Positions 19,608-45,422 are shown, numbered from the stretch's first letter. The stretch is DNA of 64,000 bases from Candidatus Sulfomarinibacteraceae bacterium (GCA_963714885.1 CAVQQV010000049.1:1177-65176); one strand, 5' to 3'. A program made the numbers and translations. Notes: generated by a model not told the origin, from the sequence alone.

Positions 19608-20988
<1,381 letters not shown>

Positions 20989-20990
<2 letters not shown>

Positions 20991-23096: not shown

Positions 23097-23199
23097 CGCG
23101 CGAGCATAACGGGATTGCGACTGGATCTGCCATACTCCCTCGGTGCGACCGGAGTTTTTTGTCGGTGTCTTTTCATCCCGGCCGGGCATACCACCAGTG

Positions 23200-26100
23200 A
23201 TGGTGATCCGCCGGGGCCTGTTGACGTGCGCTGCGGTCATCCTCGCCCTGTGGGCGGGGCTGGCGAGTGCGGGGTCCATCGAAGACCGGGTGAACCGACA
23301 CATCGACCAGGCGATCGAGGGCGGGGTGGCGCCCGCGGATTTCCACCACCTCTTCATGGCGTTCAGTTGGCGCGCCACCCTGAGCGACTGGACCGAGGTC
23401 GAGAGGAACCTGGATCGGCTGGCCGGGGTTCGCCACGTCGATCCTTTGATGGTTGACGAGCTGCGGTTGATCCGCGCCCGCACCCTGGTCGAACGCGGCC
23501 GCTGGGCGGCGGCGACCGAGCTCTTCCGCACCATGGGCGGTCTCGAGGCGTGGTGGATCGCGGGGCCGCGGCCCCTCGAGGAACTGGCTGACTTCGATGC
23601 CGCTGCGATCCCTCCCTCGGCTGAGTTTTCGTGGCGGGCGGTGCCCGGTACAGATCCCCTCGGCTGGGTGCAGCTCTCCGGTCTGGCGTGGCCGCCGCAG
23701 CGTCAGATGGCCTATCTCGCAACCACGGTCATGAGCGATCGCGAACAACAGGTGGCCCTCAGGGTGGGGACTGCCCAGGTCGCGCGGGCGTGGCTCAACG
23801 GCGACGAAGTCCTGACCACCCAACAACCGCTGCGCCTCGGCGAGGACCAGGCGTCGGGCGGGGGCTGGCTGCGCAAGGGCCGCAACACGGTGGTGGTGGC
23901 GGTTGCCTCCGAGGACCGCCAGTGGTGGCTCCGCGCGCGCCTCACCCGGCCCGACGGGGAGCCGATCGCAGGGGTCCGGGAAGTCCGGGAATCACCGGTG
24001 GTGCTGGATGGGGTCGGCCGCAAGACACCCTCCGTTCGCGATCTCGAGACCGAGATCCGGACCGCGGTGGCAGGGGGTGTGCCGGGCGCCAGAGTCGCCA
24101 TGGCGGCGTACCTGGTGGCCCGCCAGCCGCAACCTATCGGCGGCGGCGGCATCCAGGCGGCGTGCACGGCGGCGCGTGCCGAAGCCCCCGGTGAAGCGCG
24201 GCTCCTTGAGTGGATCGGCACGACCGAGCCGGGTCTGGCCCGCGAGCTGTTGGTCGACGCCATCGCTGCGGAGCCGGATCTGGTGTGGGCGCGCCTCGAG
24301 CTGGCAGGCTGGCTCGGGGAACGCGGCCTCTATGACGAGGCCCACGGGGTGCTTGCCGACTGGATTGACGACGATCCGGCGGTGGCCGGCACCAGCCTCG
24401 AATTGGACGGCTTTCTGTGGGGCCCCCTCATTCTGCCGGAGCTTGCCGAGCTGGCGCGGGCCTATCCGAAGTGTCTGAAGGTCAACCTGATCCTCGGCGA
24501 GACCGCCGAACAGGGCCGCCGGTGGGACCTTGCCGGAGAGGCGGCGCTGCGGCTGGCGGCCCTGACCCCGGATGTCCCGCAGGTGTCTGATCTCCGGCAG
24601 AGGTTGGCCGAAAACTGTGGCGACGGTGGGTTGTTGCGCGCGATCGTCAGCGATTTCGTGGAGCAGGACCCCAACCAACCGGATCAGAAGCTCCGACTCG
24701 CCCGTCTGTTTGCCGCGGATGACGATCTCGAAGCGGCGCGCTTGATTCTCGATGTGGGGCTTGAGCGCTCACCGACGAACATCGATCTGATGATGGAGCT
24801 CGCGCGTCTCGAGAACGAGGGCGGTGACCACCAACGAGCGGTCGAACTTGCCCGCTCGGTGCTCGCTCTCCGCCCCCAGGACCGGCGCGCGCAGCGGTTG
24901 CTCCAGCTTCTCGGGGAGGGGTCTGAAAGCCTCGACTGGCTGCGATCGGAGAGCGAGCTGTGGGAAATGACGGCAGGCGCCCCGGCTGGAGAACCCGCCG
25001 TCGCCCTGCTCGACCACCGCGAGATCCGCTTCCTGCCCTCCAATCTGACCGAGGAAAGGGTTCAGCAGGCGTTCTTGATCACGGCGGCGGACCGCGCCCG
25101 CGATTTTCTTGTCCACACCCTGCCGTTCGTGGCGGAGTCCGAACGACTGCGCGTCCTGCACGCCCGGATCCTCCGTCGCGACGGGTCCGAGGTGGCCGCC
25201 CGCCAGGGCGACACGCCCCGCCTTTCGGAGCCCGAGTTCAGCCTCTACTACGACACCCGGTTGCGGGTGCTCCGGTTCTCCGAAGTCGAGGACGGCGACC
25301 TCATCGAGATCGCCTACGTGCTCTCGGAGACCGAGGAGGCCAACGAGACCGGTCCCTACAACGGTGGGCTGGTGCCCCTGGGCCGGTCGATCCCGGTGGC
25401 GTTGATGGAAGTCGAGCTGGTCGGTCCGCAGGCTTCGATTCCGGCGTGGGAGCTGGTGGACCTGGAGGGCGTGCCGGTCGTCGAGGAGGGGGCCGACGGC
25501 GAAATCTCCCTGCGCTGGCAGTGGCGCGACCTTCCGGCCGTCCCCAAAGACGTTCCCGCCGCCCCGCCCCTCCTGGTGAGCCCGTATCTGGTGTACTCGA
25601 ACCACCCCGAGTGGGGCGATCTCGCGGACTGGTACGGCCGTCACGTGGCGCCGCGGGTGCGGGTGTCGGAACAGGTGGAGGAGACCGCACACCGTCTCGT
25701 CGACGGCCACGCAGGACCGCCTCGACCGGATCAACCGCATCTACCGCTTTGTGACCAACGAGATCCGCTATGTCGGTCTCGAGTTCGGCGAGCACCGGTT
25801 CCGGCCCTTTTCGGCCGATTGGGTCCTCCACCACCGGATCGGCGACTGCAAGGACAAGGCGGCCCTGCTGGTGGCGCTTCTCGACGTGGTCGGCGTGCCG
25901 GCGAACATGGTCATGATCCGGACCGCGGATCTGGGGCCGGTCGGCAATGAGCTGGCGGTGCTCGAGATCTTCAACCACGCGATCGCCTACCTGCCCGAGG
26001 ACGATCTGTGGCTCGACGGCACGGCGGCAGGGCACGCCATGTTCCCGCCGCCGAGTATGGATCAGGACGCGGTGGCCCTGGTGGTCGACGGTCCGTCGAG

Positions 26101-26741: not shown

Positions 26742-29700
26742 AGATGCATCGGCGACTGACGGCGGTGTTGGCGGCGGCCCTCTTCGCGGCCCTTCCGGCC
26801 GCGGCGGGTTGGTTCGAAGTCTGGCAGGCCGACGAGAACATGGATCTCCCGGCTGCCCGCGAGCTCGCCCTTGCCACCATGGCGGACGATCCTGCCGGCG
26901 CCGACGCCGTGGCTGCGGCCATGTGGTGGCTGGCCAACCTCGAGAACCTGTCGGATCCCGAGGAGCCCTTGACCCTGAACCGGACCGGCCGCGATGCCGA
27001 GCTCGGTTTCGTGCTCGCGCGAATCGAGGCCGGCTTGGGTTTCGAGCCCCCGGATGGCGCCCTGGTTCCGGCCGAACTGTCGGGTCCGTACGGGGTCTTC
27101 AGCAGCCTCGATCTCGAGCGCTCGGTGGTGCCGCCTGACGATCAACTGCCGGCGGCCGGCACGGTGTGGCTCGACCCGACGCAGCCGTTCCGCCTGACGC
27201 TCAGGACCCGCGACGGATTTTTCGGCCCGCCGATGAGCATGGCGGCCGACGGCGTATTTCTGGTGGGGTGGACCATCGAGGTGGCCGAGGACACGACGGG
27301 TTGGTTGGTGGTGGAGGCTCGCGGCGGCTACAACCTCGAGGTCGACGGCAAGAATGTGGATGCGCGCCGCGAGTGCGGCGTCATCGACCCCGCCACCAAC
27401 TGGTACTCGCTCGAACTCGGCAGCGGCACCCACCGGATCCGGTTGGAAACGGCCGCCCCCGAATCACCCGAGGTGAGGGTCAGCCTGATCGACGACCGGG
27501 GCGCCCGTCTCGACGGCGTGACGGTGGTCGAGGGCCTGCCGTCGCTCCTGGGACGGTCCGTGGTCGAGCCCTCGTTGCCGCCGGCATCGCACGCACTTCA
27601 AGACCGCGTACAGGCCGCCGGGGCGTCGCCGGCGGATCTGTTGCTGGCCGCCCGCCTGGCCGGGGGGCGCTGCAAATCGGATGCTCGAGGTCCTGCTTGA
27701 CGAACGGGCCCTCGCGGCGAGCCCGGACGACCCCTGGGCCGCCTTTGCCCTGGCGCAGAGCCTGTACTTGGAAAGCGGCGCCGCCGTTGCCGGTGAACCC
27801 GCGCGCCGGATCGGCAAGCTCCTGCGCGAGGCCGCATCGATCCCCAGTTCGCGCTTTGTCGAGCGCGCCCTCGCTCTGCGCGAAGGGCGCGGTGAGGACG
27901 CCGAGAGGATCCTCGACGCCCTCGCCGACGAATACCCCACCGATGTCCGGGTGCTGCGGGTCCGGGTCCGGGAGGCGGTGCGGCGTGGGTGGGCGAGAGA
28001 GGGAGAGGAAGAGCTCGAACTCCTCGAAACCGCGTTGCCGGGATCTCACGATGTCACCGGTCTGCGGCTCGAGGTCCTGGCGGCCCTCGAACGGTGGGAT
28101 GAACGGGAAGAGCTGCTGAGGGCGCTGGCGGCGATCACCCCGGTCGACACCCGATGGATCGGGCAGCTCGCATCGGGCTGCCTGGTGGGAGAGGCCGTCG
28201 GTCTGACGGAAGGGCTCCATGCGATCGGTCGACGATCCGGACTTCGACGTGCAGCTGGTGCGGCTGATGCTCGAAAACGGCGACCTCGAGGGAGCGCTGG
28301 CGGCCCTCGGTCGTGCGCGGGAGCGGTGGGGGGACCTCGGGGTCTTCGATCAACTGGCGCTGGTGCTCGCCGCGGGCGATGAGGCGGCGATGGATCGGGC
28401 CCTGGCCGGGGCGCTCGAGAGGAATCCATCGGACCTCGAACTCCTGACCCTCGCCTGGCGGGGCGGCGCAGTGCCGTTCTACGCCTCGTTCGTGGTCGAG
28501 GCCCGCGACTTCGCGGCCGCCCACCGCGACCTCGGCAACGATGGGGATGTGGTGCTGCTCCTCGATCAGGCGGTCGAGCGGATCTTCGCCGATGGTTCGA
28601 GCCTGTACTACTACCACGGTCTGACCCGCGCCAACACACCGGTGGGGGTCCGTCGCGCCTCCATTCTGCAGCCGTTGCCCGACGCCTACTTCATCAAGAT
28701 CCGGATCCTCAAACCCGACGGCTCGGTGGTGATTCCCAGCGATGTGCGTGAAGGCGAGGGGTTCATCTCGCTCAACCAGGTGGAGCCGGGCGATCTGGTC
28801 GAGGAGGAGTACGTGGCGCAGGTGGCGGCGACCGGGGCGTCCCGCGACGGCCATCTCCCTCCCTATCTCTATCGCTTTGCCGATGAAAACCGCACCTTCG
28901 GTCTGTCGGAGTACGTGCTTCTGGTGCCGCCGGAGATCGACCTTCTGGTGGACGGAAACTTCGAAGGTCTGGAGCGCAGCGAACAGGAGTGGCAGGGGTT
29001 GCGGATGCTCAACTGGCGCGCCGAGCGCGTCCCGCCGATGGCCACAGAGCCCTTCGCCCCGCCCGCACAGGATCTCATGCCGTGGCTCAACTACGGTTTC
29101 GGCGTGACCTGGCAGGATGTCGGCGACATCGTGCGCGACCGGGTCCTGCCGGTTCTGCGGACCTCCGCCGAACTGCGTGCGTGGAGTCTCACTGCGCTCA
29201 CCGGGGAGGACGCGGAGGAGCAGGTGCGGTCGCTGGTCGACGCCCTCATCGACACCGTCGAATCAGGTGACGGCGACTTCGCCATCGGCACTGCTGCGGG
29301 TGAGAGTTTTGCAAACCGCCGCGGCAACCGGCTCGGCATTCTCGCAGCGGTGCTGGCGGAGGCGGGGTGGCAGGTGGACCTGGTGCTGACGCGGGCGTGG
29401 AACGAACGCGGCAACCGGTTGACGGTCCCCACCCTCGACGCGTTCCCGGTGGCCGTGTTGCGGGTCAGCCGCGGCGACGACGAGATCTGGATCGACATGC
29501 GCGAGGAGCGCCGCGGCGTCAACCACATCAACCCCCTCTTCCAGGGCGCCGACGGGCTCGTCCTGCCGCTGAGCGAACCGCAGATACCGGTGACGCTGAT
29601 CGACCGTCTCCCGACCTTCGCCAACCCCGATCTGGTCGAGGAGGTGACGGTCAAGGCGGTGGTGTCGCCATCGGGCGATGCCCGCATCACCTTCCGGTTG

Positions 29701-30261
29701 CCGCTGCGCGGGGGCCAGGCGGAGCAGCTCCTCGAGCGGGTGGACAGCGTGCCGTCGGACCAGATCGCCATGATCTACCGTCAGATGGCGGTGTCCCTCT
29801 TCCCCGGCGCCGACGAGATCTCGGGTGAGATCGAGCGCGGCGACGGCGGTGCGGTGATCCTCCTCGAGCTGACCGCGCCGCGCGCCTGCGAAGGGGAGGC
29901 CGGTCAGTTGGTGTGCCGCAGCCTGGTGCTCGCGAACCCGGTGGTGCCGGTGTTGGCGTCGCTGCCCGAACGCCGGTACCCGCTGGTTCTCAGGCTCCCG
30001 ATCGAGCGCCGGCTGGAGCTCGATCTGGTGGCACCCGACGGGTGGTCGGTGGTTGCGCGGCCTCCGCGTCGGCTCAGCGCGGACTGGGGGTCGGTCGAGG
30101 AGACGCTCTCGACGGCTGACGGGGCGCAAACGTCCATGCTCCACATCCTGATTCCGCCGCAGAGAGTCGAGCCCGCGGACTACGCGGCCTTCGCCCGCTT
30201 CTGCCAGGCGCTTGACGAGCTCACCACCCGTCCGCCGCGGCTCGAGCCCCTACCCCAATAG
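26738..30261 (+). CDS. Secreted DUF3857/transglutaminase-fold paralog lacking catalytic residues (frameshifts near 27670 and 28228)
   Basis: Signal peptide; joined from ORFs 26738-27700, 27681-28382 and 28219-30261; VEPGDLVEEEY; C-terminal VEPADYAAFARFC; ATGA overlap with the upstream gene. Confidence 0.72.
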
Positions 30262-31217: not shown

Positions 31218-31313
31218 TGGAAGGGATTAGAATTCGGAATTCGCGCAATGCTGACCTGGGTCCTCCGGAGACGTGTGAAACGTCGTCGCAACGTCGGAAT
31301 ATCTCGAATCGGT

Positions 31314-33648
31314 CTATCCGAGCGCGCGGTGGGGGGCGGCGAGGAAACAGGCGAGATAGCCGGGACGGCTGCGCAGGGTCGAGAGCGGAATCAGGATGCC
31401 CTGCGACTCCCGTCTCAAGCCCTCGTACATCTGCGAGAGATCAAAACGGTTCCGGAACAACCACATCTCCATCGGTTCAACGGGGTCGAGCTCTGGGGTC
31501 TGAATCGGCACCTGCAGGCAGTGGAGCAGGACGTCATCGGTGTCCCGGTACTCGCCGAAGAGCCACTTCCGGGTGCCGTCCTCGAGCACATAGGTGATGA
31601 CGAGCAGACTGTCTTCGATCTCCTGGGTTCTGCCTGGGGTCGAGACCGGCGTCGTGGTCTCCGTCGATGACAACGAGACGGCGGAGGCAGTCGATCAACG
31701 GGCGTTCGAAGGGGATGGATCGGGCATCGGGTGGCAGCTCTGTCCACACCGCCGCCTCGGCCAGTTCCTGGGAAGGCAGACCCTTGAGCCGCGCGACGCC
31801 CAGATACCGGAGGCCGACATAGAGGGTGTCGGGCATCCCGGGGTCGATCGGAAACAGCAGACACTGGAGGTCGTCGATCTCGGCCACCGCCAGGCTTTCG
31901 AGGTCGAGTTCGAGATCCAGTTCCTCGAGAAAGGGCAGGGCGACGACGATGCCCTCGTTGACCAGTTCGCCGTGGGCGTCGAGGGTGGCGGCGTAGCGGC
32001 GGGAGGATTGCCGTTGCCGGCTGCTGCGAACCTCGGACAGCGGCGCCAGGAAGGCGTCGACCTCACCCAGATCGTAGCCGGAACGGATAAGGATCTCGGC
32101 GAGGTCCGAGATCTCGCGAGTGCTCTTGCCGGTGGTCAGACGCGCGAGCTCAACGATGCCGTGACCGAAGAACTCGAACCTCTTGGCTTCGGGGCCGGGG
32201 TGGAGCATCGGCAGCAGGCGGTAGACCCCATAGTTGAGGGCGATGCGGATGCCGTGGTTGAACGGAAAGCCAATGTTGCGCAGTTGCTCGTACACGTGCT
32301 GGATCTCGCACGCTGCCGCGATCACCCGCAGAGCGCGGCGCGAGGTGTAGAAGGCGCCGTCGCCGAGGAATTTTTCGAAGGTCAGCCGCCGCCGCAACCT
32401 GATCGCCTCGAGCCGGTTCTGGAACACGTACATGAACTGGAGCGCCCGCTCCTCTGCCATCCGGCCTTCCTTCCGCATCTCCTCGAGGACGGTGGTGAAG
32501 TTGGAGAGGTCGTAGATGAGACCGAAACGGCGGACCGCCGAATCGACGACACCGGGCGCCGTGAAGTCGTAGGGGCGGGTGGTCTTGGCGATGGGAGTCG
32601 CCGAGGAGGGCCCGGCGAACACCAGGGTCGTGCCCTGGCGCTGCATGGGGAGGATCCGTCGCCTCAGCGCGGACAGGAGCTCGAAGGTCTTGAGGCGCAG
32701 ACCGAGCTCGCGCAGCAGATCGAGCTGGACCGCCGACAGGTGGAGGGTCTCCGCGAGACCGGAGCTGCGGATGGCGTCGAGCAGGCGGGGTTGCAGCAGG
32801 GCCTCTGGACGGTCGAATCTGAGGTTCGAGCCCACCGCCATACGCAGCAGGCTGGCGACCTCGGGTCGCCGGGCGACGAGGTCGTTGAGCCGTTCGAGCA
32901 CCATCCGGTTGGCAGCTTGAAGGGCTTCTGCATTCTGCCGGAAGCGCGTCTGGAGGTAGCCGCTGAGCTGCATCAGATCGCTGGGCGGGCGGTTTTCGAC
33001 CAGCAACAGCTGATCCTGGCAGATGATCCCCAACAACGGCGTCAGGGCCGGGATGACCTGCACTTGCGCGAGCTGGCGAAGCTTGTCGACGGCGGTCATT
33101 GCAGCCCGCCTCAGGAGGTCCGCGACCACCGACGCGACGTGCTCACGCTTCTCGGCGGCGGCGCCGGGTGAGCCGGTCGGAAGGCCCTCGATCTTCGAGA
33201 CCTGGGCCAGAGAACGGATGACCTCACCCGAGTGGAACAACAGAAAGAGGTCCACCAACCCGCGGTGGTAGTCGTTCATGAAGACGTTTTCAAGGGTGGT
33301 CGCGATGCTGTTGTGGTACTTCTCGCGGTGGGCGAGAACGGTCCGCTTGAGTTCGCTGTTTGCCGGCTGCTGCTGGAACCGCATCTGAATCTCGGAGCGG
33401 ATGAGATTGTCGAGGTCGCGGCGCAGCTTGCGGACGCCGTCGGACAGAAGGATCGGGTAGCCCCAGGTGACCACATGCTCCTCGTCGCGGCCGAAAATCG
33501 GGAACGGCGCGGGCAGGGAGGTGGCGAGAGCGGGGAAGATCTCGCACCACCCGCCGCTCACCTCTTCCGGCGTCAGATACAGCGGGTGCTGGAGGTCCTC
33601 CTTGAGCACATGTCGAAAGGCATCGAGGCTCTTCTCGTCGCGCATCAT
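31314..33648 (-). CDS. Divergent class III nucleotide cyclase-like protein (frameshift near 31675)
   Basis: GLIYDLSNFT, EKFLGDGAF, GIRIALNYG, FFGHGIVELARL in canonical cyclase order; C-terminus continues in ORF 31314-31673. Confidence 0.72.
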
Positions 33649-33764
33649 CACTCCATTGTATCCGCGAGCCGATCCGACCACAGCCGGCACACCCTCCGGA
33701 CGGGCGCCGACCGCTGGGTTGCGACCATTGAACGGTAGTCGAGATGGTGGGATAATCGAGGCTC

Positions 33765-34802
33765 ATGCTGTTTGACGATATGGTGAAGGCGATCAGGGAG
33801 AGTCCGTTTTTTCACGGGATGCCCTCCCATGAACAGGTGACGCTGGCGCGTCTCGGCGCGGTGGATGTGCACGCTCCGGGAACGGTGCTGTTCCGCCCGG
33901 GTGAAGTGCCGGCGGCGCTTTACCTGGTTCTCGACGGCGTGGTGGAGATCTCGCGCGAGGAGAGCATCGAACTCGGAATGCGCCCAGTGGCCTACATGGG
34001 CGCCGGATCCACGATTTTGGAGAGCAAGGTCATTACCGGTTCGGTCTTGACATCGCTGGCACAGTTTCCCGAGGGTGGCGTCACCCTCACCTGGCCGCGC
34101 CCTGTCCTCCTGCGCCAGCTCTATTCCTCGCAGGATCTCGCCCTGCACTACCTGCAGAGCCTCGCCCGCCGTCTCGAGGGGACCATCGTCAACCTCGGCG
34201 CCAACGAAGGCAGCAATTTGGGCGGCCGCCTCGAGCATTTCGACCTGCCGGCGATCCTGCAGACGGTCGTCGACTCGGGGGGGGCCGGGGTGCTCGAGAT
34301 CCTCGACGCCGACGGGCTCAACTTCGGCGCGATCCACACCCAGAAAAACAACATCGGTCGCATGCACTGCGGCCGACTGAAGGGCCGCGAGGCGTTTCTC
34401 CAGATCATGGCGGCGCCCCCCAAACGCGGGACCTTCCGGTTCTCGAGTCTCGCCGCGCCCCAGGACGACACCGGTTTTCAACCGCTCCAACCGTTGCTGA
34501 TGGAGGCCGCGCGCATCCAGGACGAGTTCGCACATTTCGCCGTGACAGTGCCCGCGGACGCGATCCTCCAGCCGTCGTCGCGGCAGCTGGTATGGGGTGG
34601 CGGCAACGACTCCCAACTCGTCGAACAGATCTGGCATCAGCTTTCCGTCGAACCGTGCGGGTGGGGGGAGCTGGCGGAGATCCTGCCCTTCAGCCATGGC
34701 CAGGTCGGTCTCGCGGTTCGGGACATGCTGCTGGCCGGGGTCGTCAACGTCGACCGCAGCTACGAGGCGCCGCCGGGCGGGGTCCGCCTTCGCGGCATTT
34801 GA
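33765..34802 (+). CDS. Cyclic nucleotide-binding domain + DUF4388 (PatA-N-like) protein
   Basis: LFRPGE..ALYLVLDGVVEI (cNMP fold); LGGRLEHFDLPAILQ..GVLEI..GTFRF..LLMEAARIQDE (DUF4388 pattern). Confidence 0.85.
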   Translation: MLFDDMVKAIRESPFFHGMPSHEQVTLARLGAVDVHAPGTVLFRPGEVPAALYLVLDGVVEISREESIELGMRPVAYMGAGSTILESKVITGSVLTSLAQFPEGGVTLTWPRPVLLRQLYSSQDLALHYLQSLARRLEGTIVNLGANEGSNLGGRLEHFDLPAILQTVVDSGGAGVLEILDADGLNFGAIHTQKNNIGRMHCGRLKGREAFLQIMAAPPKRGTFRFSSLAAPQDDTGFQPLQPLLMEAARIQDEFAHFAVTVPADAILQPSSRQLVWGGGNDSQLVEQIWHQLSVEPCGWGELAEILPFSHGQVGLAVRDMLLAGVVNVDRSYEAPPGGVRLRGI

Positions 34803-34887: not shown

Positions 34888-37563
34888 ATGCGTTCCCGCC
34901 GTGTTCTGCTGACCCTGATCGCGATCGTTGCCGTGGTCGTGTCGGGGTCGTCCATCGCGCGCACCGTTCGCAGCTTTTACCGGCTGGATTTTCGGGTGTC
35001 GTGGGTGGAGGCCGGGCTGCTCGTGGACGGCGTGCCCGAGGGTTCCAGCGCGGCCGTCGCCGGGCTCGCCAAAGGCGACATGATCATCAAGGTGGATGGC
35101 GTCGCCATCGAGCAGTTCGAGGACCCGGCCTTCGTGCTGGCGGGCGGCGACGAGCACGGCATCACGGTGCTGCAGAGCGACGGCGGCGTCGAGGAACTGC
35201 GGTTTCGTTCGCCGCCGCCGGCGATCAACTCGGTTTATCTGGCGCGGACCGCGGTCGGGCTGATCGGTCTCGCCCTCGCGCTCTATACCGTGTGGTCAAC
35301 GCCGCGGCGTGAGGCCGCGACCTTCCTCCTCCTGGCGGCCGCCGCCCTCCTGATGGGAGCGGTCCCGAACCGGATCGCGGCCGCGGAGCTCACCCTGCAG
35401 GTGGTTCGTCGCGCGGCGGGCGCCGCCCTGCCGTTTCTGATCGCACGGTTTTTTGCCATCTTTCCCGAGCGGACACGGTCGATGCGGAACCTCGATCTGT
35501 TGACGCTGGTGGCGGTGGCGGGTTCGGGCGCCACCGCCTTTCTCCGCGGCGCGGAGGCGTGGTGGCCCGCGGTGGCGTCGCTGGTCCGGGTGTTGTTCGT
35601 GCTGTCGCTGATCGTCGGCTTCATCGTTCAGGTGTGGCGGTGGCGGGAATCCGCGCGTGAGGCCAGGATTCGGCGCCAGATCGAATGGGCGGCCCTCGGT
35701 CTCTTCGTGGGTCTGGCGCCTTTTGTCTCCCTGGTCATGGTGCCGCGCTGGATCGGGATCAGCTTCGAGCCCTTTTCGTGGCTGGCGGTCTTCCCGATGG
35801 TGGCGATGCCGCTGACGCTGGTGGCCGCCCTTCGCGAGTACCGTCTGTGGGACCTCGAGCCCATCGCCCGGGACCTTTTGTCGGCGACTCTCGTGGTGGT
35901 GACGGGCGCCTTTATCTTTGCCGTCACCAACCACCTCCTGCTTCGCTACACCGGCGGGCTCGGCTCGCTCCGCAACCTCTTCGCCTTTGCAACGGGCGTG
36001 CTGCTGGTGGTTCTGCTGCAACCGGTTCGGGTGCGGGTCGAGCGGTTCCTCGATGCTTTTCTTCACCACGGGAGGCAGGCGCCGCGCTCCCTGCTCACCG
36101 GCGCAAGCCGCGACCTGGCCACGGTGACCAACCCCCGAGAGCTGCTCGAACGACTCTCCGAGACCCTCCATCAGGGGTTGGAGTTCGATCTCGTTGCCAC
36201 CTATCTCCGGGTCGCGGGGGAGATCTTCGAGCGGATCACGGGGAACCCCGAAACCCTGCCGGATTTTCTGCCGGCGATGGCGGCGGAAACTCCTTTCCCG
36301 GGTCGACACGAGAACCCCCTCCAACTCGCCGGGTTTGCGGTGAGGATCCCATTGGAGCGCGTCGGCACTGTCCACGGTCTGCTCTACCTGGGCCTCCGGC
36401 GCGGCGTCTTCCCGCTCGGCAGCGAGGGCGAGGCGGTGGTGGGCGCGTTTGCCGCGCAGGCAGCGCTGGCATTGGAAAGCGCGCGCTACCTCGATGACCT
36501 GCGCCGTCAGGCGGAGGAGTACCGCATCCTCCACGCCAACACCCAACGCATCATCGAGTCCTCGGCGGCGGCCATCCTGGTGTGTGACGCTTCGGCCCAC
36601 ATCCTCACCGCGAATCGGCACGCGGCGAACATCTTCGGGCGCGAGGCGCAGGCCCTGGTCGGCCTGCCCTTGGATGAGCTGGTCGAGCTGCCCGAGGCTT
36701 GGCACATCGAGCTCCCCATGCACGCGGTCAACACCGAGGCGCGCACCCATTCCGCCCCGCCGCGGCGGGTCATCCTCGCGGTGTCGGTGCTCGAGCTCGA
36801 CAGCGGGAGCTTCAACGGCCGCGTGGTGGTGCTTCAGGACGTCACCGAGCTGCGTGAGCTTCAGGACAGGATCCTGGAACAAGAACGGTTGGCCGGTTTG
36901 GGGCGGCTGGCGTCGGGGCTGGCCCACGAGATCAACACGCCGCTGACGGGGATTTCATCCTACGCCCAGATGTTGGGTGAGATGACCCCGGACAGCGACC
37001 CGCGCGCAGGGCTCATCACCAAGCTGGTCGACCAGAGCTTTCGGGTGTCGAGCATCGTCTCCAACCTGCGCTCGATGGTCAGGGGCTCGAGCGACAGCCG
37101 GATGGTGCTCGACATCAACGGGGTGGTCGAACGGGCCGCTCGCGAGGCAGCCAGATCGCTGGGCAGGGACGCCGCCCTCGAAATCGAGGTGAGCGGCGAA
37201 CCGGTCATGGTCTGGGCATCGGTGGCGCCGCTCGAACTGTCGGTCGGCAATATCGTGCGCAACGCCATCGAGGCGTCACACTCCGGAGGGACCGTGCGCC
37301 TGTCTATCAGCTGCGAGGGCGAGTGGGCGGAGATTCGGGTCGACGATTCGGGCCCCGGGCTGGCGGGCAACACCGAGGAACGCGTGTTCGAACCGTTCTA
37401 CTCGACCAAGACCGACCGCGGCGGCAGCGGTCTCGGTCTCGCCATCACGCGTGATATGATCGCCCAACTCGGCGGCAGGGTCAGACTCGAGAACAGGGCG
37501 GATGGCGGGGCCCGTGCCACGATCAGGCTACAGAGATGGCAGGATCCAAATCAATCCTCGTAA
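34888..37563 (+). CDS. Membrane sensor histidine kinase (PDZ + multi-TM + GAF + PAS + HisKA/HATPase)
   Basis: PDZ (SSAAVAGLAKGDMIIKVDG), many TM helices, AAQAALALESA, GLAHEINTPL, DDSGPG, FEPFYSTK, GLGL. Confidence 0.9.
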   Translation: MRSRRVLLTLIAIVAVVVSGSSIARTVRSFYRLDFRVSWVEAGLLVDGVPEGSSAAVAGLAKGDMIIKVDGVAIEQFEDPAFVLAGGDEHGITVLQSDGGVEELRFRSPPPAINSVYLARTAVGLIGLALALYTVWSTPRREAATFLLLAAAALLMGAVPNRIAAAELTLQVVRRAAGAALPFLIARFFAIFPERTRSMRNLDLLTLVAVAGSGATAFLRGAEAWWPAVASLVRVLFVLSLIVGFIVQVWRWRESAREARIRRQIEWAALGLFVGLAPFVSLVMVPRWIGISFEPFSWLAVFPMVAMPLTLVAALREYRLWDLEPIARDLLSATLVVVTGAFIFAVTNHLLLRYTGGLGSLRNLFAFATGVLLVVLLQPVRVRVERFLDAFLHHGRQAPRSLLTGASRDLATVTNPRELLERLSETLHQGLEFDLVATYLRVAGEIFERITGNPETLPDFLPAMAAETPFPGRHENPLQLAGFAVRIPLERVGTVHGLLYLGLRRGVFPLGSEGEAVVGAFAAQAALALESARYLDDLRRQAEEYRILHANTQRIIESSAAAILVCDASAHILTANRHAANIFGREAQALVGLPLDELVELPEAWHIELPMHAVNTEARTHSAPPRRVILAVSVLELDSGSFNGRVVVLQDVTELRELQDRILEQERLAGLGRLASGLAHEINTPLTGISSYAQMLGEMTPDSDPRAGLITKLVDQSFRVSSIVSNLRSMVRGSSDSRMVLDINGVVERAAREAARSLGRDAALEIEVSGEPVMVWASVAPLELSVGNIVRNAIEASHSGGTVRLSISCEGEWAEIRVDDSGPGLAGNTEERVFEPFYSTKTDRGGSGLGLAITRDMIAQLGGRVRLENRADGGARATIRLQRWQDPNQSS

Positions 37564-38915
37564 TTGACGACGAGCCCGTCCTCCAGGATGTGCTCGGGTC
37601 CCTCCTCAAGGGCAATGGCTTCGATTGTCACCAGGCCATGACGGCCGCCGACGGAATGCGCGTGCTCCGCGAAGAAGAGATCGATGTCGTGCTCCTCGAT
37701 CTCATGCTTCCAGATCGCAGCGGCCTCGACCTGTTGCCGGAGATCAAGATCCTCGACCCGCACCTGCCGGTGGTCGTCATCACCGCCTACTCGTCGGTGG
37801 AGTCAGCGATCGAGGCGATGCGGCGCGGCGCCTTCCACTACGTGCCGAAGCCCTTCAAAAACGAAGAGGTCCTGCACCTGGTGCGGCGCGCCGCCGAGCA
37901 GCGGGCGCTGCAGGTCGAAAACGTGCAACTCCGGAGCCGGCTCGAGGGGATGGGCGAGATCGTCGGCAAGAGCCGCCGCCTCGAAGAGGTCTTCGAGCTG
38001 ATCCGCAGGGCGGCGCCCGCCCGTTCCAACATCCTGCTGGTAGGAGAATCCGGAACGGGCAAGGAACTGGCGGCGCGGGCGATCCACCGGCTCAGCCCCC
38101 GCAGCGACGGCCCCTTCGTGCCCGTCCACACCAGCGCCATCCCGGCCGATCTTCTGGAATCGACCCTGTTCGGTCATGTCAAGGGCGCGTTCACGGGCGC
38201 GATCAACAATCGCAAGGGCCTCTTCGAGGCTGCCCACGAGGGCACCCTGTTTCTCGACGAGGTGGGCACCATCTCGCCGGAGACCCAGACCAAGCTGTTG
38301 CGGGTGATCCAGGAACGTGAGATCCGCCGGGTCGGCAGCGTCGAGGCGAGAAAGGTCGACACCCGGCTGGTGGTCGCCACCAACAGCGATCTGTGGCAGG
38401 AGGTCCAGTCGGGCCGCTTCCGCGAGGACCTCTACTATCGCCTCAACGTGATCTCCATCGAGTTGCCGCCGCTGCGCGAACGGCGCGACGACATCCCTCT
38501 GCTCGCGACCCATTTTCTACGCATCTACGCCGAGGAGAACAAACGCAACGTGCAGGGGTTGTCGTCCTCGGCGATGGACGCTCTCGCCGAGTACCACTGG
38601 CCGGGCAATGTCCGTGAGCTCGAAAACGCGGTCGAGCGCGCCGTGGTTCTGTGTCAGGCGGACACCATCGACGTCGACGAGCTGCCGCTGGCGGTGCGCG
38701 GCGAGGGGCTGACCGCGGCCCCCGGGATCGATTTTCCGGCCGCCGGGGTCGATCTCCGCGAGGCCGTGAACGAGTATCAGACGAAGCTCATCCGCGAGGC
38801 CCTCCACCGCAGCGGTGGCGTCCAGCGCCGCGCCGCCAAGCTCCTCAAACTGAGCCCCACGACCCTCAACGAGATGATCCACCGGCTCGGGGTGGATGTC
38901 TCCGGAGACGACTGA
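37536..38915 (+). CDS. Sigma-54-dependent response regulator (NtrC family)
   Basis: Receiver domain; GESGTGKE, LFGHVKGAFTGA, WPGNVREL, HTH; overlaps the kinase gene. Confidence 0.95.
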   Translation: MAGSKSILVIDDEPVLQDVLGSLLKGNGFDCHQAMTAADGMRVLREEEIDVVLLDLMLPDRSGLDLLPEIKILDPHLPVVVITAYSSVESAIEAMRRGAFHYVPKPFKNEEVLHLVRRAAEQRALQVENVQLRSRLEGMGEIVGKSRRLEEVFELIRRAAPARSNILLVGESGTGKELAARAIHRLSPRSDGPFVPVHTSAIPADLLESTLFGHVKGAFTGAINNRKGLFEAAHEGTLFLDEVGTISPETQTKLLRVIQEREIRRVGSVEARKVDTRLVVATNSDLWQEVQSGRFREDLYYRLNVISIELPPLRERRDDIPLLATHFLRIYAEENKRNVQGLSSSAMDALAEYHWPGNVRELENAVERAVVLCQADTIDVDELPLAVRGEGLTAAPGIDFPAAGVDLREAVNEYQTKLIREALHRSGGVQRRAAKLLKLSPTTLNEMIHRLGVDVSGDD

Positions 38916-40409: not shown

Positions 40410-40506
40410 GATTTCGGATTTCGGAATGCGGATTTCGGATTTATCTTTCCGTCTTCGCTGGATCGATGGGCGGAAATCCGAAATTCGAAATCCGCAAATC
40501 CGAAAT
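40410..40506. repeat. Inverted heptamer arrays (GATTTCG)n...(CGAAATC)n
   Basis: 40410-40442 and 40474-40506 are roughly reverse-complementary arrays around a 31-bp spacer. Confidence 0.8.
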
Positions 40507-40532
40507 TGAAGCCCACCGGCAATACGGTCAAA

Positions 40533-40931
40533 TCAGCGCATATATTTGTTATGCACCATGTGTTCCACGTACCGGTCGGTGTGGATGCCGTAGTCCTTGA
40601 GCAGACCCTCGGCCGAGACCACGAAGGTCGCCTCCTCGCCGGCCGTGCGGGAGAAGTAGACGCGGTGGGTCTCGCCGGACATGTGCACATCGAGGGCGCA
40701 CAGGCCATCAGAGAGTTCGGACACCAGGCTCTGGTCGCACACCGGACAGAAGAAATTCCAGGTGGTCCCCGGCGGCATTTCCTCACCCGGTGGCAGATCG
40801 ACTTCGTAGTTTCCTGGTTGTGGGTGGAAACCGGCCAGGAAACGGTGATCGTCTCGTTCGGCGCAGAGCACGACCCGTTCCCCGGGGTTGAGCAGGGATG
40901 CGCAGTGGGGGCAGGAATAGGTCCAGTGCAT
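40533..40931 (-). CDS. Small Cys-rich hypothetical protein (two CxxC motifs)
   Basis: YSCPHC and FFCPVC; SD GGAG; GC3-biased codons. Confidence 0.7.
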   Translation of the reverse strand: MHWTYSCPHCASLLNPGERVVLCAERDDHRFLAGFHPQPGNYEVDLPPGEEMPPGTTWNFFCPVCDQSLVSELSDGLCALDVHMSGETHRVYFSRTAGEEATFVVSAEGLLKDYGIHTDRYVEHMVHNKYMR

Positions 40932-40996
40932 GTCTCACTCTCCCAGGCTTCAGGATAGCGAAAAACCCCCCCGGTCGGGGAAAGGAGGTCTCGATC

Positions 40997-41710
40997 TCAG
41001 AGCAGCGCCACGCCCAGCTCTCGCAGTTGGCGGGTGGCCACGTCCGCCCACCCCCGGTTGGCGGCGGGGCTTGCCGGGCTCGGGTGGAGAATGCGGCCGA
41101 TCGCGATGCCGCTGCCCTCGAGGGCAGTCGTGGCCCGCCCTTCGGCAAAGGCGCCGATTCCGACCACGAGCTGCGGCCGCAGGTGCTCCACCGTTCGCCG
41201 CAGGGCGAGATCGCAGGCCGCGAACAGCAGTTCACGTTCGGCTGCGGGTAACTTGTCCGGGGTTCGATTGCGGCCGGTTGATTCCATGAAGGTCAACGGA
41301 CAGTAGTTGCCGATAAAGAAGTCCTCGAAAAACCGTTCGGGGGTGTGGAAGAGCTCTCGTGCCCAACCCCACAATCGTGCTCCGCTGACCTCGGAGCGCG
41401 TGCAGGCGAGGCCGACTATCGGCCGCTTCGGGTGCTCGACGATGGGGCGCCCGATCTCGGCGGAAATCCTCAGCCAATCGCGGACGGCAGCCACCTCGCC
41501 GAAGGGCACCCCGGTCTGCGCCATCCCCCAGGGCCCGGGGTTCATACCGAGGAAGAGGATCTCCTTGGGGCCTCGGCCGTACAACTCCAGGTACTGGCGG
41601 TGCGCCGGCCACGCGTAGTCGAGCGGGTTGTAAACATGAGTCACCGGCGGCGCGAACTTCAGGTGATCAACCTCGGACGAGAGGTCTCGTGCAATTTCTA
41701 CCAGGTTCAC
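40997..41710 (-). CDS. SMUG1-type (family 3) uracil-DNA glycosylase
   Basis: VYNPLDYA, GMNPGPWGMAQTGVPFGE, SEVSGARLW, NYCPL, HPSP. GTG start at 41710; the upstream ORF extension is only translated repeat. Confidence 0.93.
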   Translation of the reverse strand: MNLVEIARDLSSEVDHLKFAPPVTHVYNPLDYAWPAHRQYLELYGRGPKEILFLGMNPGPWGMAQTGVPFGEVAAVRDWLRISAEIGRPIVEHPKRPIVGLACTRSEVSGARLWGWARELFHTPERFFEDFFIGNYCPLTFMESTGRNRTPDKLPAAERELLFAACDLALRRTVEHLRPQLVVGIGAFAEGRATTALEGSGIAIGRILHPSPASPAANRGWADVATRQLRELGVALL

Positions 41711-41745
41711 TGCAACCGCCCCCAGTGACAGAGAGTAGCAGTTTG

Positions 41746-41821
41746 CCGAAATCCGAAATCCGAAATCCGAAATCCGAAATCCGAAATCCGAAATCCGAAA
41801 TCCGAAATCCGAAATCCGAAA
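41746..41821. repeat. Perfect simple sequence repeat (CCGAAAT)x10
   Basis: Ten perfect units plus CCGAAA in the divergent gap between the UDG gene and ggt. Confidence 0.95.
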
Positions 41822-41856
41822 CCGCAGTTCGCGTACCATATGGGCCGGAGGTCGCC

Positions 41857-43554
41857 ATGCATCGGTTTGTCGTCCTGTCTCTGATCCTCGTCGCCGCTTC
41901 CATGACGTGTGCCGCCGACCGCCCCGAGGGCCGCGCCTTTGCCACCAGGTCGGTGACCTACGCCCGCCACGGGATGGTGGGCGCGGCCCACCCGCTGGCA
42001 GTGCAGATCGGTCTTGACGTGCTCAAGGCCGGCGGCTCTGCGGTGGATGCGGCGATCGCCACCAACGCGGCTCTCGGTTTTCTGGAGCCCGTGTCGTGCG
42101 GTCTCGGCGGCGACCTCTTTGCCATGGTGTGGGACCCGGCAAGTGAAAAACTCTACGGTCTCAACGCGTCAGGCCGCGCACCGGCATCGTTGACGATCGA
42201 CAAGGTTCCGGCGACCGAACGCGGAACCATCCCGGTGTACTCGCCCTACTCGTGGACGGTCCCGGGGTGCGCCGACGGGTGGTTCGCCCTCCATGAAAAG
42301 TTCGGTCGATTGCCGATGAAAGACCTCCTCGAACCGGTGGCTCAGATGGCGCGCGAGGGCGCACCGGTCCCTCAGGTGATCGCAGGATCGTGGGCCCGCG
42401 GCGCCGAGCGCTTCGCCGACTCGCCGGGATTCGCCGAGGTTTTCATGCCCGGGGGCGTGGTTCCGGCCGAAGGTGATGTCTTTGCCAACCCGGCGCTCGC
42501 CAATACCCTCGAGGTGCTGGCCGCGGGAGGGCGCGATGCCTTTTACGAAGGCGAGATCGCCCGCGAGATCGTCGCCTTTTCAAACGAGAACGGCGGGTTC
42601 TTCACGATGGAGGACTTCGCCAACCACACCAGTGAGTGGGTGGAGCCGATCTCGACCACTTACCGCGGGCTGACGGTGTGGGAGCTCCCGCCCAACCCAC
42701 AGGGCCTGGCGGCGCTGCAGATGCTCAACATCCTCGAAGGCTTCGACCTCACCGCCATGGGGCGTTCGAGCACCGACTTCTGGCACGTGATGGTGGAGGC
42801 CAAGAAGCTCGCCTACGAAGACCGTGCGCGGTACTACGCCGACATGCAGTTCTCCGAGGTGCCGGTCGAGGCCCTTCTCGACAAGGGCTACGCAGCCGAA
42901 CGGGCGAAGCTCATCGACATGCAACACGCTGCCAGGAGCTATGAGCCCGGCAACCCGGCTCTCAACCACGGCGATACCACATTCCTGGTCGCCGCCGACT
43001 CCAGCGGCATGCTGGTGTCGCTGATCCAGTCCAATTACACGGGTTTCGGGTCGGGATACGTGGTGCCGTCCGTCGGTATCGGCATCCAGGACCGGGGAGC
43101 GCTGTTTTCCCTGGACCCCGACCACCCCAATGCGCTCGAACCCGGCAAGCGTCCTTTCCACACCATCATTCCCGCGTTCATGGGGTGGAACGGAGTGCCC
43201 GACACCGCCTTCGGTCTCATGGGCGGCGACATGCAGCCCCAGGGCCACGTCCAGATCGTCGTCAACCTCGTCGACTTCGGGATGAACCTCCAGGAGGCGG
43301 GCGACGCGCCGCGCTTCCACCACGGCGGGTCGTCGGAGCCCACCGGGACGGTGATGACCTCGGGCGGCGAGCTCAACCTCGAATCGGGTCTCCCGATGGA
43401 GGTCTACCGCGATCTCAACCAACGCGGCCACACCATCGTCGAGACCAGCCCGGGCACCTTCGGCGGCTACCAGATCATCCACCGCGACCCCAAGACCGGG
43501 GTCCTCGCCGGCGCTACCGAGTCGCGCAAGGACGGGATGGCAGCCGGCTATTGA
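41857..43554 (+). CDS. ggt: Gamma-glutamyltransferase
   Basis: Signal peptide, GGSAVDAAIA, GLGGDLF, GDTT (nucleophile Thr), SLIQSNY.GFGSG, KRPFHTIIP, GGDMQPQGH; SD GGAGG. Confidence 0.95.
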   Translation: MHRFVVLSLILVAASMTCAADRPEGRAFATRSVTYARHGMVGAAHPLAVQIGLDVLKAGGSAVDAAIATNAALGFLEPVSCGLGGDLFAMVWDPASEKLYGLNASGRAPASLTIDKVPATERGTIPVYSPYSWTVPGCADGWFALHEKFGRLPMKDLLEPVAQMAREGAPVPQVIAGSWARGAERFADSPGFAEVFMPGGVVPAEGDVFANPALANTLEVLAAGGRDAFYEGEIAREIVAFSNENGGFFTMEDFANHTSEWVEPISTTYRGLTVWELPPNPQGLAALQMLNILEGFDLTAMGRSSTDFWHVMVEAKKLAYEDRARYYADMQFSEVPVEALLDKGYAAERAKLIDMQHAARSYEPGNPALNHGDTTFLVAADSSGMLVSLIQSNYTGFGSGYVVPSVGIGIQDRGALFSLDPDHPNALEPGKRPFHTIIPAFMGWNGVPDTAFGLMGGDMQPQGHVQIVVNLVDFGMNLQEAGDAPRFHHGGSSEPTGTVMTSGGELNLESGLPMEVYRDLNQRGHTIVETSPGTFGGYQIIHRDPKTGVLAGATESRKDGMAAGY

Positions 43555-43694: not shown

Positions 43695-45422
43695 ATGTTG
43701 GACCCGATCCTCAGTGATGAACAGCGACAACTGCTGACCGGCGAGCGCGAGCTGTTGGCCGAGGTCAAGACCGGCCTCGAGCGTTCGGACGCCGCGGCTG
43801 ACGATCTGCGGGCGCTCAACGACTCGGTGCGGCAGCTTGACGAGCTCTTTTTGTTGGTGGTGGTCGGTGAGTTCAACGCCGGCAAGTCGGCGCTGATCAA
43901 CGCCCTCCTCGGTGAGCGGGTGCTCGCCGAAGGCGTCACACCGACCACCTCGAAGATCCACCACATCACCTGGGGCGAGGAGCTCACCCGCCAACCCATG
44001 GGCGCCGTCGGCGAACGGATCACGGCCCCGATCGAGAGCCTCCGCCAACTCGCTGTCGTCGACACCCCCGGCACCAACGCCCTCGACCGCGCCCACGAGG
44101 CCCTGACTACCGACTACGTACCGCGGGCCGATCTGGTGCTCTTCATCACCTCCGCCGATCGCCCGATGTCGGAGAGCGAGCGCATCTTCCTCGAGACTAT
44201 CCGCCGCTGGGGCAAGAAGGTGGCAATGGTCGTCAATAAGGTCGACATCCTCAAGAGCGATGACGAACGGGCGGAGGTCGTGGCCTACGTGGTGACCAAT
44301 GCCACTCGCCTGTTGGGCGTGGCACCCGAGGTGTTCGCGGTTTCTGCCCTGCGCGCCGCCGAGGCCGAAACCGACGATGAACGAGTGGCGAGCGGGCTGC
44401 CCGCGGTCGAGGCCTTTCTGCACGGGACCCTGGACAGCGGAGAACTGCTACGGCTCAAGCTGGTCAACCCTCTCGGCGTGGCTCGACACCTCTTGAAAGG
44501 GTCGCTCGAAACGGTTGAGGCCAGGCTCGGCCTGCTGACTGAGGACCGCCGTACAATCGGCGATATCGGTCAGCAAACCGAAACCTGGACGGCCGACGTC
44601 CGGCGGGAGTTCGACCTTCGCCTGTCGGACATCGACAACAGCCTCTATGGCATGGAACAGCGGGGTATGGAGTTCTTCGACGATACCGTGCGCATTGCGA
44701 AATTGCCGAAGCTCTTCGACACCTCCGGGCTCAAACAGACATTCGAGTCCGAGGTCGTCGCCGACGCACCTGAACAGGTCGAGGAAAAGGTCGACTCACT
44801 GATCGATTGGCTAGTGGACTCGGAGCTCGCTCACTGGCAGAACGTGGTCAACCACGTCAACCGGCGGACCTCGGCGCACGCCGATCGTATGGTGGGCGAG
44901 GTCGGCGGACGCTTTGAGACCGATCGCGCCCGATTGCTCGAAACGGTCGGTCGCGCGGCCCGCGATGGAATGGCGTCCTATGACCGGGTGGCGGAGGCGC
45001 GCCGGATGGCTGAGGACCTCCAGAAGGCGGTCACCTCCACCGCCCTCCTCGAGGTCGGTGCGGTGGGTCTCGGCGCCGCGGTGGCCCTGGCCGCCAGTTC
45101 CACCGCCGCTGACATCACCGGTCTGACCGCGGCCGGGTTGATGGCGGTACTCGGTCTGTTCATCCTGCCGCACCGCCGCCGCCGCGCCAAGGCCGATCTC
45201 AAACAGAAGATCTCCACCCTTCGCACCGAGCTGATGACGGGCTTGACAGGGCACTTCGAAAAAGAGGCCGAGCGCGGCCGCCGTCGTCTCGAGGAGACCA
45301 TCGCGCCCTACACCCGTTTCGTGCGTTCGGAATCCGACCGGCTCGAGGGAGAACGAAACACCCTCGCCGCCCTGTCGGAACGCGTCGGCGAAATGACGGC
45401 GCAGGTGGACGCGCTCCGCTAG
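43695..45422 (+). CDS. Bacterial dynamin-like GTPase with C-terminal TM hairpin
   Basis: VGEFNAGKS, PTT, DTPG, NKVD; long helical stalk; two hydrophobic segments near the C-terminus. Confidence 0.9.
   Translation: MLDPILSDEQRQLLTGERELLAEVKTGLERSDAAADDLRALNDSVRQLDELFLLVVVGEFNAGKSALINALLGERVLAEGVTPTTSKIHHITWGEELTRQPMGAVGERITAPIESLRQLAVVDTPGTNALDRAHEALTTDYVPRADLVLFITSADRPMSESERIFLETIRRWGKKVAMVVNKVDILKSDDERAEVVAYVVTNATRLLGVAPEVFAVSALRAAEAETDDERVASGLPAVEAFLHGTLDSGELLRLKLVNPLGVARHLLKGSLETVEARLGLLTEDRRTIGDIGQQTETWTADVRREFDLRLSDIDNSLYGMEQRGMEFFDDTVRIAKLPKLFDTSGLKQTFESEVVADAPEQVEEKVDSLIDWLVDSELAHWQNVVNHVNRRTSAHADRMVGEVGGRFETDRARLLETVGRAARDGMASYDRVAEARRMAEDLQKAVTSTALLEVGAVGLGAAVALAASSTAADITGLTAAGLMAVLGLFILPHRRRRAKADLKQKISTLRTELMTGLTGHFEKEAERGRRRLEETIAPYTRFVRSESDRLEGERNTLAALSERVGEMTAQVDALR

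Follow-up and report, generated by a model that had tools for sequence, protein, structure and literature searches.

A diverged class III cyclase-like protein beside a receptor-like PATAN protein in a Candidatus Sulfomarinibacteraceae genome: signaling pair or shared synteny?

Does a gene for a strongly diverged class III nucleotidyl cyclase-like protein, lying head-to-head with a gene for a receptor-like protein, form with it a dedicated signaling module, and would its product still be a working cyclase? These questions are raised by a stretch of 64,000 nucleotides from Candidatus Sulfomarinibacteraceae bacterium (GCA_963714885.1 CAVQQV010000049.1:1177-65176), hereafter the window, in which a minus-strand cyclase-like gene and a plus-strand gene, here called the partner gene, occupy positions 31314-34802. 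The window belongs to a metagenome-assembled genome (4.09 Mb in 72 contigs, 82% complete), and its closest public relatives are labelled Candidatus Sulfomarinibacteraceae (Acidobacteriota, Thermoanaerobaculia). An initial annotation, made from the sequence of the window, had read the two genes as a candidate module in which an unusual cyclase and a receptor with a remodeled cyclic nucleotide monophosphate (cNMP)-binding fold had diverged in parallel, by analogy with the Pycsar anti-phage systems.

Our analysis assigns the product of the cyclase-like gene, a soluble protein of several domains, to a deeply diverged branch of the class III nucleotidyl cyclases, and the two genes probably do not make up a dedicated pair of enzyme and receptor. 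The joint explanation toward which we lean, with moderate confidence, is that of a diverged, purine-cyclizing class III cyclase next to a receptor-like gene that is not its dedicated partner. The large protein would act as a dimer and make a purine 3',5'-cyclic nucleotide, most likely cyclic AMP (cAMP), possibly with a relaxed choice between ATP and GTP, and its N- and C-terminal domains would control the cyclase activity. The neighboring protein would belong with the co-oriented histidine kinase and sigma-54 activator genes that follow it, and may sense a small ligand, not necessarily a cyclic nucleotide, and pass the signal on through its PATAN domain.

Fold and active site of the cyclase-like protein

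In the window the cyclase-like gene is spread over two minus-strand open reading frames (ORFs), 31534..33690 (718 residues) and then 31314..31673 (119 residues) in another frame. Its homologs are single proteins of about 770-810 residues, whose last ~100 residues match the second ORF, and the position at which they start corresponds to the ATG at 33648; with this start, the head-to-head spacing of 116 bp noted in the initial annotation holds. Pfam and NCBIfam scans of the large protein matched no family, and of the 120 listed database proteins that are closest to it, a single one is called a cyclase, every other given name being "hypothetical protein". When 1.84 billion representatives were searched exhaustively with a profile, 202 proteins reached E <= 0.001, which are family members and fragments of them; the 150 of these that were listed include no canonical cyclase and offer no bridge to the canonical enzymes. 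NRho (0.034) and TFIIE (0.1), the sole matches of the Pfam, NCBIfam and PDB searches with the large protein, were taken as chance.

The relationship to class III cyclases is carried by structure models and by profile-profile comparison. A model of the domain, built from the window's own core residues and alignment A2 (72 sequences) with a predicted local distance difference test score (pLDDT) of 75, gave 137 Foldseek matches in the PDB at E <= 0.001, and the listed top ones are all class III cyclases, led by the guanylyl cyclase Cya2 (2w01_B; E 1.3e-7, root-mean-square deviation (rmsd) 3.3 over 148 columns) and with the adenylyl cyclases CyaB and CyaC among the leaders. When the same model was compared with 48,161 chains by VIA-align, the top match was the C1 domain of mammalian adenylyl cyclase (1cs4_A; Z 13.8, rmsd 2.4, 131 residues aligned), followed by C2 and CyaB (Z 13.5) and by CyaC and Cya2 (Z 13.3), and the top 23 rows were all cyclase-fold; GGDEF domains reached 9.6 at most, and GGDEF domains and CRISPR polymerase palms together 10.2 or lower. 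The AlphaFold2 (AF2) model of a full-length homolog (pLDDT 77) gave no Foldseek match at E <= 0.001, with weak top matches that are all class III cyclases, and aligned to the cyclase domain of Rv1900c with Z 14.0 (156 of 167 residues, over 373-636). By hhalign, alignment A2 matched a canonical profile, made from the PF00211 domains of the window's genome and related genomes, with a probability of 90.6% (E 1.3e-6, 116 columns). The class III fold read from motifs in the initial annotation is thereby confirmed by Foldseek, VIA-align and profile-profile comparison, with adenylyl cyclases ranking above GGDEF domains.

Since the structural alignments span residues 373-636 while the target domains have 167-200 residues, the domain must be interrupted, and an insertion of ~45 residues lies at about residues 505-550, after the helix that carries the transition-state Arg; the middle part of the protein is modeled as a complete class III cyclase fold split by this helical insertion. 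The flanking ~380 and ~250 residues had been described as unrecognised sequence without a transmembrane segment. This stands for the N-terminal part, for which structure comparison gave weak, non-specific helical matches (Z 7-8) and a protein-atlas search no usable match, whereas part of the C-terminal ~250 residues belongs to the cyclase domain itself. The remaining C-terminal alpha/beta domain is absent from a branch of ~665-690-residue proteins, whose representatives match only profile positions ~35-640, and its best protein-atlas score (0.80) is within the range of shuffled proteins. The absence of a transmembrane segment was likewise upheld: no 19-residue stretch reaches the hydrophobicity of a membrane helix (maximum of 1.35 on the Kyte-Doolittle scale, vs 2.65 in the neighboring kinase). 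Class III cyclases work as head-to-tail dimers with the active sites at the interface; a homodimer prediction with two copies of residues 300-650 scored 0.05 against a mark of 0.42 and gave no answer.

The hhalign alignment also sets the active-site motifs in register. The window's L-I-Y-D-L-S-N-F-T falls on canonical L-F-A-D-I-V-G-F-T, with the first metal-binding Asp and the Phe-Thr loop; F-E-K-F-L-G-D-G falls on L-D-K-F-I-G-D-A, with the Lys and the second metal-binding Asp; and E-F-F-G-H-G-I-V-E-L-A-R-L falls on T-V-L-G-N-A-V-N-V-T-A-R-L, which places the base-reading position, the Asn position and the Arg. As in other class III cyclases, both metal-binding Asp residues, the Phe-Thr loop, a Lys four before Gly-Asp and an Arg eight after Gly are thus found in register. 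Across the 72 sequences of A2, which reach down to 43% identity in the cyclase region, Asp81, Lys127, Asp131, Glu193, Val200 and Arg204 (A2 numbering) are invariant in 72/72, among 37 invariant columns of 261, and all of the sequences retain the Phe-Thr of the phosphate loop as well. The motifs IYDLSNFT and EKFLGDG and the Arg, which the initial annotation had described as kept, are therefore kept throughout the family as far as both metal-binding Asp residues and the Arg are concerned, and its claim that the catalytic Asn is lost in GHGIVELARL was equally correct, a Val standing at this position in every sequence. This conservation supports reading the loss of Asn as a family-wide conserved feature, not as decay.

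Class III cyclases specify the base with a pair of residues, Lys and Asp/Thr for ATP, Glu and Cys or similar for GTP. The family has an invariant Lys and, in place of Asp/Thr, an invariant Glu, that of RFEFF, at the base-reading position three residues before the Gly. The annotation had singled out RFEFF in the purine-specifying region as altered; the motif is present, whereas a loss of the determinant is not what it represents, as Glu is a conservative substitution at the Asp/Thr position. Such a Lys-Glu pair would suggest that the substrate is a common purine nucleotide and not an exotic one. According to PMC4886424, the predicted cyclase family DUF2652 shares the Lys-Glu pair and the kept Arg and carries an aliphatic residue at the Asn position, and in the active cyclase Rv1900c the Asn is replaced by His, which indicates that Asn is not strictly needed.

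The protein resembles the soluble homodimeric class III cyclases CyaB (3r5g), Cya2 (2w01) and Rv1900c (1ybt), with Z 13-14 and nearly the whole target domain aligned, and differs from canonical members of the class in lying outside PF00211, in Val for Asn and Glu for Asp/Thr, in the insertion and in its new flanking domains. With DUF2652 (PF10851) it shares the active-site signature, which three acidobacterial DUF2652 sequences also show by eye. The latter family is a single-domain one of ~250 residues that occurs in Mycobacterium, Bacteroidetes and Proteobacteria (PMC4886424), with 203-226 residues in the acidobacterial open frames, unlike the ~777 residues here. None of the 72 members matched PF10851 at E <= 10, the phylum scan found no PF10851 match in the window's genome, and hhalign against a two-sequence DUF2652 profile gave 2.5%, a comparison with no power, as the same thin profile gave 8.9% against canonical cyclases; the shared signature may be convergent.

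The partner protein and the gene pairing

The partner has a clear PATAN domain, with 35.4 bits against DUF4388 (PF14332; cut-off 25, model positions 2-120 of 122). Its match to the cNMP-binding family PF00027 stays below the cut-off of 27.5 (22.3 bits, model positions 5-60 of 89; 24.9 bits in the genome scan), and many of its homologs carry a precomputed PF00027 match. A profile of 42 homologs matched the cNMP-binding domains of PKG (E 1.3e-5), PKA and CRP-type regulators, with CRP-family chains at E 1.4e-4 and above over query positions 10-156; the PKG alignments end at the Glu of the phosphate-binding cassette. A canonical cassette reads Gly-Glu ... Arg-Ser/Thr-Ala. The corresponding loop of the family is x-E-S-K-V-I-T-G-T/S, with Glu in at least 70% and Lys and Val in at least 90% of the 42 homologs, Thr-Gly invariant and the Gly position variable, and a conserved Arg after the loop Glu is present in none of the 42. 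The initial annotation was right that the cassette is replaced and that the barrel is fused to DUF4388, and the conservation of the new loop indicates a remodeled, constrained pocket rather than a decayed one. A weak MarR-type match (E 0.16, profile positions 284-334) suggests a helix-turn-helix-like C-terminal tail.

The cNMP-binding fold is used for other ligands, or for none, in the effector domains of CRP/FNR-type regulators. The partner barrel is like these in being recognisable by profile with the canonical cyclic-phosphate contacts absent, and differs from CRP in an output that is PATAN, not the CRP DNA-binding domain. PATAN, of which DUF4388 is another name, is described as fused to many kinds of input domains (bioRxiv 10.1101/2021.06.11.447907; PMC12448109); the former source describes it as an output domain whose binding partners in Synechocystis are PilB1 and PilC of the pilus motor. 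Like PatA-type and other PATAN proteins (e.g. the REC-PATAN proteins PixE and PixG, and ComFB-PATAN), the partner joins a small-signal input domain to a PATAN output; unlike PixE, PixG and ComFB-PATAN, its input is an Arg-less cNMP-like barrel, its PATAN domain lies C-terminal to the input, and it has the extra helix-turn-helix-like tail. The window's genome has an expanded family of eleven PATAN/DUF4388 matches, and that of the partner is the sole one fused to a cNMP-binding-like domain. The same genome has eight cNMP-binding matches; the seven of them over the cut-off form an ordinary cAMP toolkit together with four PF00211 matches. On contig C3, at about 40475-42410 (L082:138-2073), a canonical PF00027 gene (75 bits) overlaps a co-oriented gene for an FHA-class III cyclase (PF00211, 29.8 bits) by 26 bp, which is an ordinary enzyme-plus-receptor pair.

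In order to follow the pairing, we collected 79 related loci, of which 72 had enough upstream DNA. The partner gene is adjacent and divergent in 39 of these 72, and in 38 of the 39 the aligned parts lie 34-325 bp apart. At 52% identity and above, a split chosen after the data were seen, the loci form one sub-lineage in which the partner is adjacent in 39/40 and the histidine kinase is syntenic in 40/40; none of the 32 more distant loci has it. The loci of the sub-lineage also keep RsgA, the kinase and the activator, and adjacency to the cyclase-like gene therefore adds nothing beyond general synteny. At one locus within this syntenic sub-lineage (L032:5050-5778), a gene for a DeoC-family aldolase fills the slot of the partner, between the genes for the kinase and the cyclase-like protein.

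Pfam scans of 33 flanking ORFs at 17 of the distant loci found no cNMP-binding or PATAN gene, and the neighbors there are inconsistent, with a ComM/ChlI-like ATPase upstream at 6 loci, purC downstream at 2 and PilZ downstream at 2, and no conserved alternative partner. At these 6 loci, which include L045:4379-5962 and L053:3917-5974, the gene for the ComM/ChlI-type AAA+ ATPase immediately precedes the cyclase-like gene on the same strand. Its overlap of 4 bp with the greedy-ORF start of the cyclase-like gene in L045 and L053 suggests that the two may form an operon in these lineages. PilZ-domain proteins are encoded on the opposite strand just downstream of a short (~670 residues) cyclase-like gene at L077:8244-9758 and L078:8145-9212.

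The distribution of the two proteins was scanned in an even sample of 151 Thermoanaerobaculia genomes, with 14-17 first-look candidates scored per genome; G141 and G016 are unpublished genomes, each counted in one of two tallies, and no conclusion hinges on them. The cyclase-like domain was found in 91 genomes, mostly in single copy (8 of the 91 have two or three matches), and in every sampled genome of several GTDB families (20/20, 16/16 and 35/35). The full-length partner (E <= 1e-150) was found in 10 genomes, which belong to three genera; a further 66 genomes match it at the PATAN level only or, in two of them, at the barrel level. In other genera, 16 regions surrounding the cyclase-like gene all lack the partner, and one of these regions has the kinase and the activator. 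The proposal of a dedicated two-gene module is not borne out by these data, as the head-to-head pairing is confined to one sub-lineage. Nor did the parallel divergence of enzyme and receptor hold, because the unusual residues of the enzyme are family-wide and occur in many genomes in which no partner was found.

Weighing the alternatives

Several observations weigh against the explanation that we favor. None of the 72 family members matched PF00211 at E <= 10, a search in which HMMER filters drop most matches above about 0.1, and PDB searches by sequence and by family profile gave no usable match. Part of the active-site region is modeled with low confidence, the full-length AF2 model having a pLDDT below 50 at residues 366-378, 426-430 and 474-512, and the domain-only model still 55-65 in these parts. 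That the protein probably cyclizes a purine nucleotide is argued from conservation only, as it is for DUF2652; the base it would use is a guess from two residues, and the position of the catalytic Asn is taken by Val in all sequences. The fold is also shared with 6yii of Pseudomonas aeruginosa (Z 11.1 and 9.5), by its entry title a class III cyclase-like protein that only binds ATP, where it likewise lies inside a larger multidomain protein. On the side of the gene pair, the head-to-head arrangement is very stable inside the sub-lineage, and the loop of the partner is conserved rather than decayed, with a local functional link being possible. Some of these points would suit a pseudo-cyclase, in which the fold is kept and nucleotide and metal are bound without cyclization, as an NTP (nucleoside triphosphate) sensor or a scaffold within a large protein: the uniform replacement of Asn by Val, the drift of the domain beyond Pfam recognition, the insertion within it and the match to 6yii are what such a protein could display. 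It is nonetheless harder to reconcile with the invariance of two metal-binding Asp residues, Lys, Glu and Arg over deep divergence, which is more than nucleotide binding alone should need, and active cyclases that do without the Asn exist, e.g. Rv1900c (PMC4886424); we consider this reading rather unlikely, while giving it serious weight.

Two further alternatives keep the two genes together. A dedicated module could exist within the sub-lineage, where an unusual messenger of the remodeled cyclase would be read by the remodeled cNMP-like pocket, with PATAN as the output. The near-constant adjacency there speaks for it, as do the non-canonical sites of both proteins, which are conserved and not decayed, and the standing of the partner as the only cNMP-like-PATAN fusion among the genome's PATAN and cNMP-binding matches. 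The retention of RsgA, kinase and activator at the same loci, the absence of the partner from distant loci and from other genera, the breadth of the cyclase-like domain compared with the few genomes with a full-length partner, the deoC gene in the slot of the partner, the family-wide occurrence of the enzyme's unusual residues and the resemblance of the Lys-Glu pair to an adenine-reading pair all count against it, and make it improbable in our judgment. We regard as quite improbable the more specific proposal that the cyclase branch makes a messenger other than plain cAMP or cyclic GMP (cGMP), read in the Sulfomarinibacteraceae sub-lineage by the Arg-less E-S-K...T-G pocket and coupled to a PATAN output, such as a type IV pilus motor, and to the kinase/sigma-54 activator pair. 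The remaining alternative is a Pycsar-like anti-phage system, in which infection would trigger a cyclase making cyclic CMP (cCMP) or cyclic UMP (cUMP) that activates a cNMP-binding effector. Pycsar systems are co-oriented two-gene operons in which a cyclase is joined by a cNMP-binding effector whose killing domain is of the membrane or TIR type. The cyclase fold is indeed shared with the Pycsar-type cUMP synthase 7r65 (Z 11.8) and the cytidylate cyclase 8jsf (Z 10.6), and the partner has a cNMP-binding-like domain; adenylyl and guanylyl cyclases, however, score higher (Z 13-14), the genes are divergent and form no operon, and the partner has no hydrophobic segment and no membrane or other killing domain, only PATAN. 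PADLOC gave no match for the window protein, the partner or P0002 (a close homolog of the window protein), the neighbors are housekeeping genes (RsgA, MnmA, Obg), and the family-wide, mostly single-copy distribution is neither patchy nor island-like; the analogy with Pycsar drawn in the initial annotation does not survive this comparison, and we hold such a role to be very improbable indeed. What is left as the preferred explanation is the diverged purine cyclase with a neighbor that is not its dedicated receptor.

Frameshift, surroundings and significance

The extra base lies in a linker that has 13 codons and one base in the window vs 13 residues in P0002, which is 93% identical. Contigs of four public sequencing runs (a metatranscriptome and three DNA runs, each of a different study) were aligned on 31300-32300, and in all four a contig that bridges the site lacks exactly one base: 31648 in X1 and X2, 31649 in X3 and 31643 in X15. 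The bridging contig of X1 (775 bases) has just 6 further differences from the window. The contig of the RNA run X15 covers 31315-32088 with 27 differing letters, and contigs from an RNA library do not prove transcription. The best-matching DNA runs carry 0.81 of the sampled words, none of them being shown to be the source sample. Because near-identical DNA in other samples lacks the base, it is private to the window's assembly, most likely as an assembly error and less likely as a private or recent mutation. P0016, a homolog from another genome, departs from the family alignment over its last ~110 residues, which look like the window's out-of-frame reading; this second assembly seems to be frameshifted in the same linker.

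The features of the locus are collected in Table 1. Consensus matching in the intergenic region gave one sigma-70-like site where 0.4 would be expected, and a sigma-54 promoter scan gave 50 matches vs 56.6 expected, none of them within this region. The partner and kinase genes are 86 bp apart, with no terminator-like site found between them, and the kinase and activator genes overlap by 28 bp. The neighbors of the locus are housekeeping-type genes (Obg, RsgA, MnmA, gamma-glutamyltranspeptidase and similar), and no pilus genes were seen among the scanned ORFs of the window. Elsewhere in the window there are two large TPR/DUF3857 proteins upstream of rsgA (23143-25950 and 28219-30261, plus strand), a second NtrC-type sigma-54 activator (19608-20990), a bacterial dynamin-like GTPase (43695-45422, plus strand; Dynamin_N, 82.5 bits) and a homolog of prokaryotic pentameric ligand-gated ion channels (49084-50448, minus strand; Neur_chan_LBD and Neur_chan_memb).

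Table 1. Positions of the genes, domains and sites discussed, counted from the first base of the window
Feature	Position	Strand	Description
Cyclase-like gene	31314..33648	-	Cytosolic protein of ~777 residues; contains the hidden class III cyclase homology domain; in two frames in the window through one extra base
N-terminal domain	32644..33648	-	Mostly helical, ~335 residues; conserved; AF2 blocks mostly pLDDT 80-95
Cyclase homology domain	31741..32532	-	Residues 373-636, P0002 numbering
First metal-binding Asp (IYDLSNFT)	32509..32511	-	Aligned to the canonical Asp; invariant; Phe-Thr of the phosphate loop kept
K-F-L-G-D of EKFLGDG	32359..32373	-	Adenine-specifying Lys 32371-32373, second metal-binding Asp 32359-32361; aligned to K-F-I-G-D
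E-F-F-G-H-G-I-V-E-L-A-R	32140..32175	-	Glu 32173-32175, Val 32152-32154, transition-state Arg 32140-32142
Helical insertion splitting the cyclase domain	31999..32136	-	Helices at 510-522 and 527-541
Single extra base (frameshift site)	31641..31650	-	Variable linker
C-terminal alpha/beta domain	31314..31622	-	~100 residues; second frame
Divergent intergenic region	33649..33764	.	116 bp; one sigma-70-like site at 33728-33756, plus strand
Partner gene	33765..34802	+	345-residue soluble protein: cNMP-binding-like domain, PATAN (DUF4388), C-terminal helix-turn-helix-like tail
Remodeled phosphate-binding-cassette loop LESKVITGSVLTS	34017..34055	+	42-homolog comparison
PATAN / DUF4388 domain	34224..34526	+	PF14332 match above cut-off
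Histidine kinase, PDZ-membrane-PAS	34888..37563	+	Pfam; co-oriented with the partner gene
NtrC-type sigma-54 activator	37536..38915	+	Pfam; co-oriented with the partner gene

Taken together, these analyses carry a caution, in that the picture of an enzyme beside its receptor was produced here by synteny limited to one lineage rather than by a functional module. No published description of the cyclase-like protein family was found in the open-access literature. In the Thermoanaerobaculia, which are abundant in marine sediments, a cyclase-like protein that standard annotation misses is present in more than half of the sampled genomes (91/151). If it is active, it would be a conserved additional source of second messenger with two regulatory domains of an uncharacterised type, and together with DUF2652 it would show that a class III active site with a Lys-Glu pair and without the Asn works.

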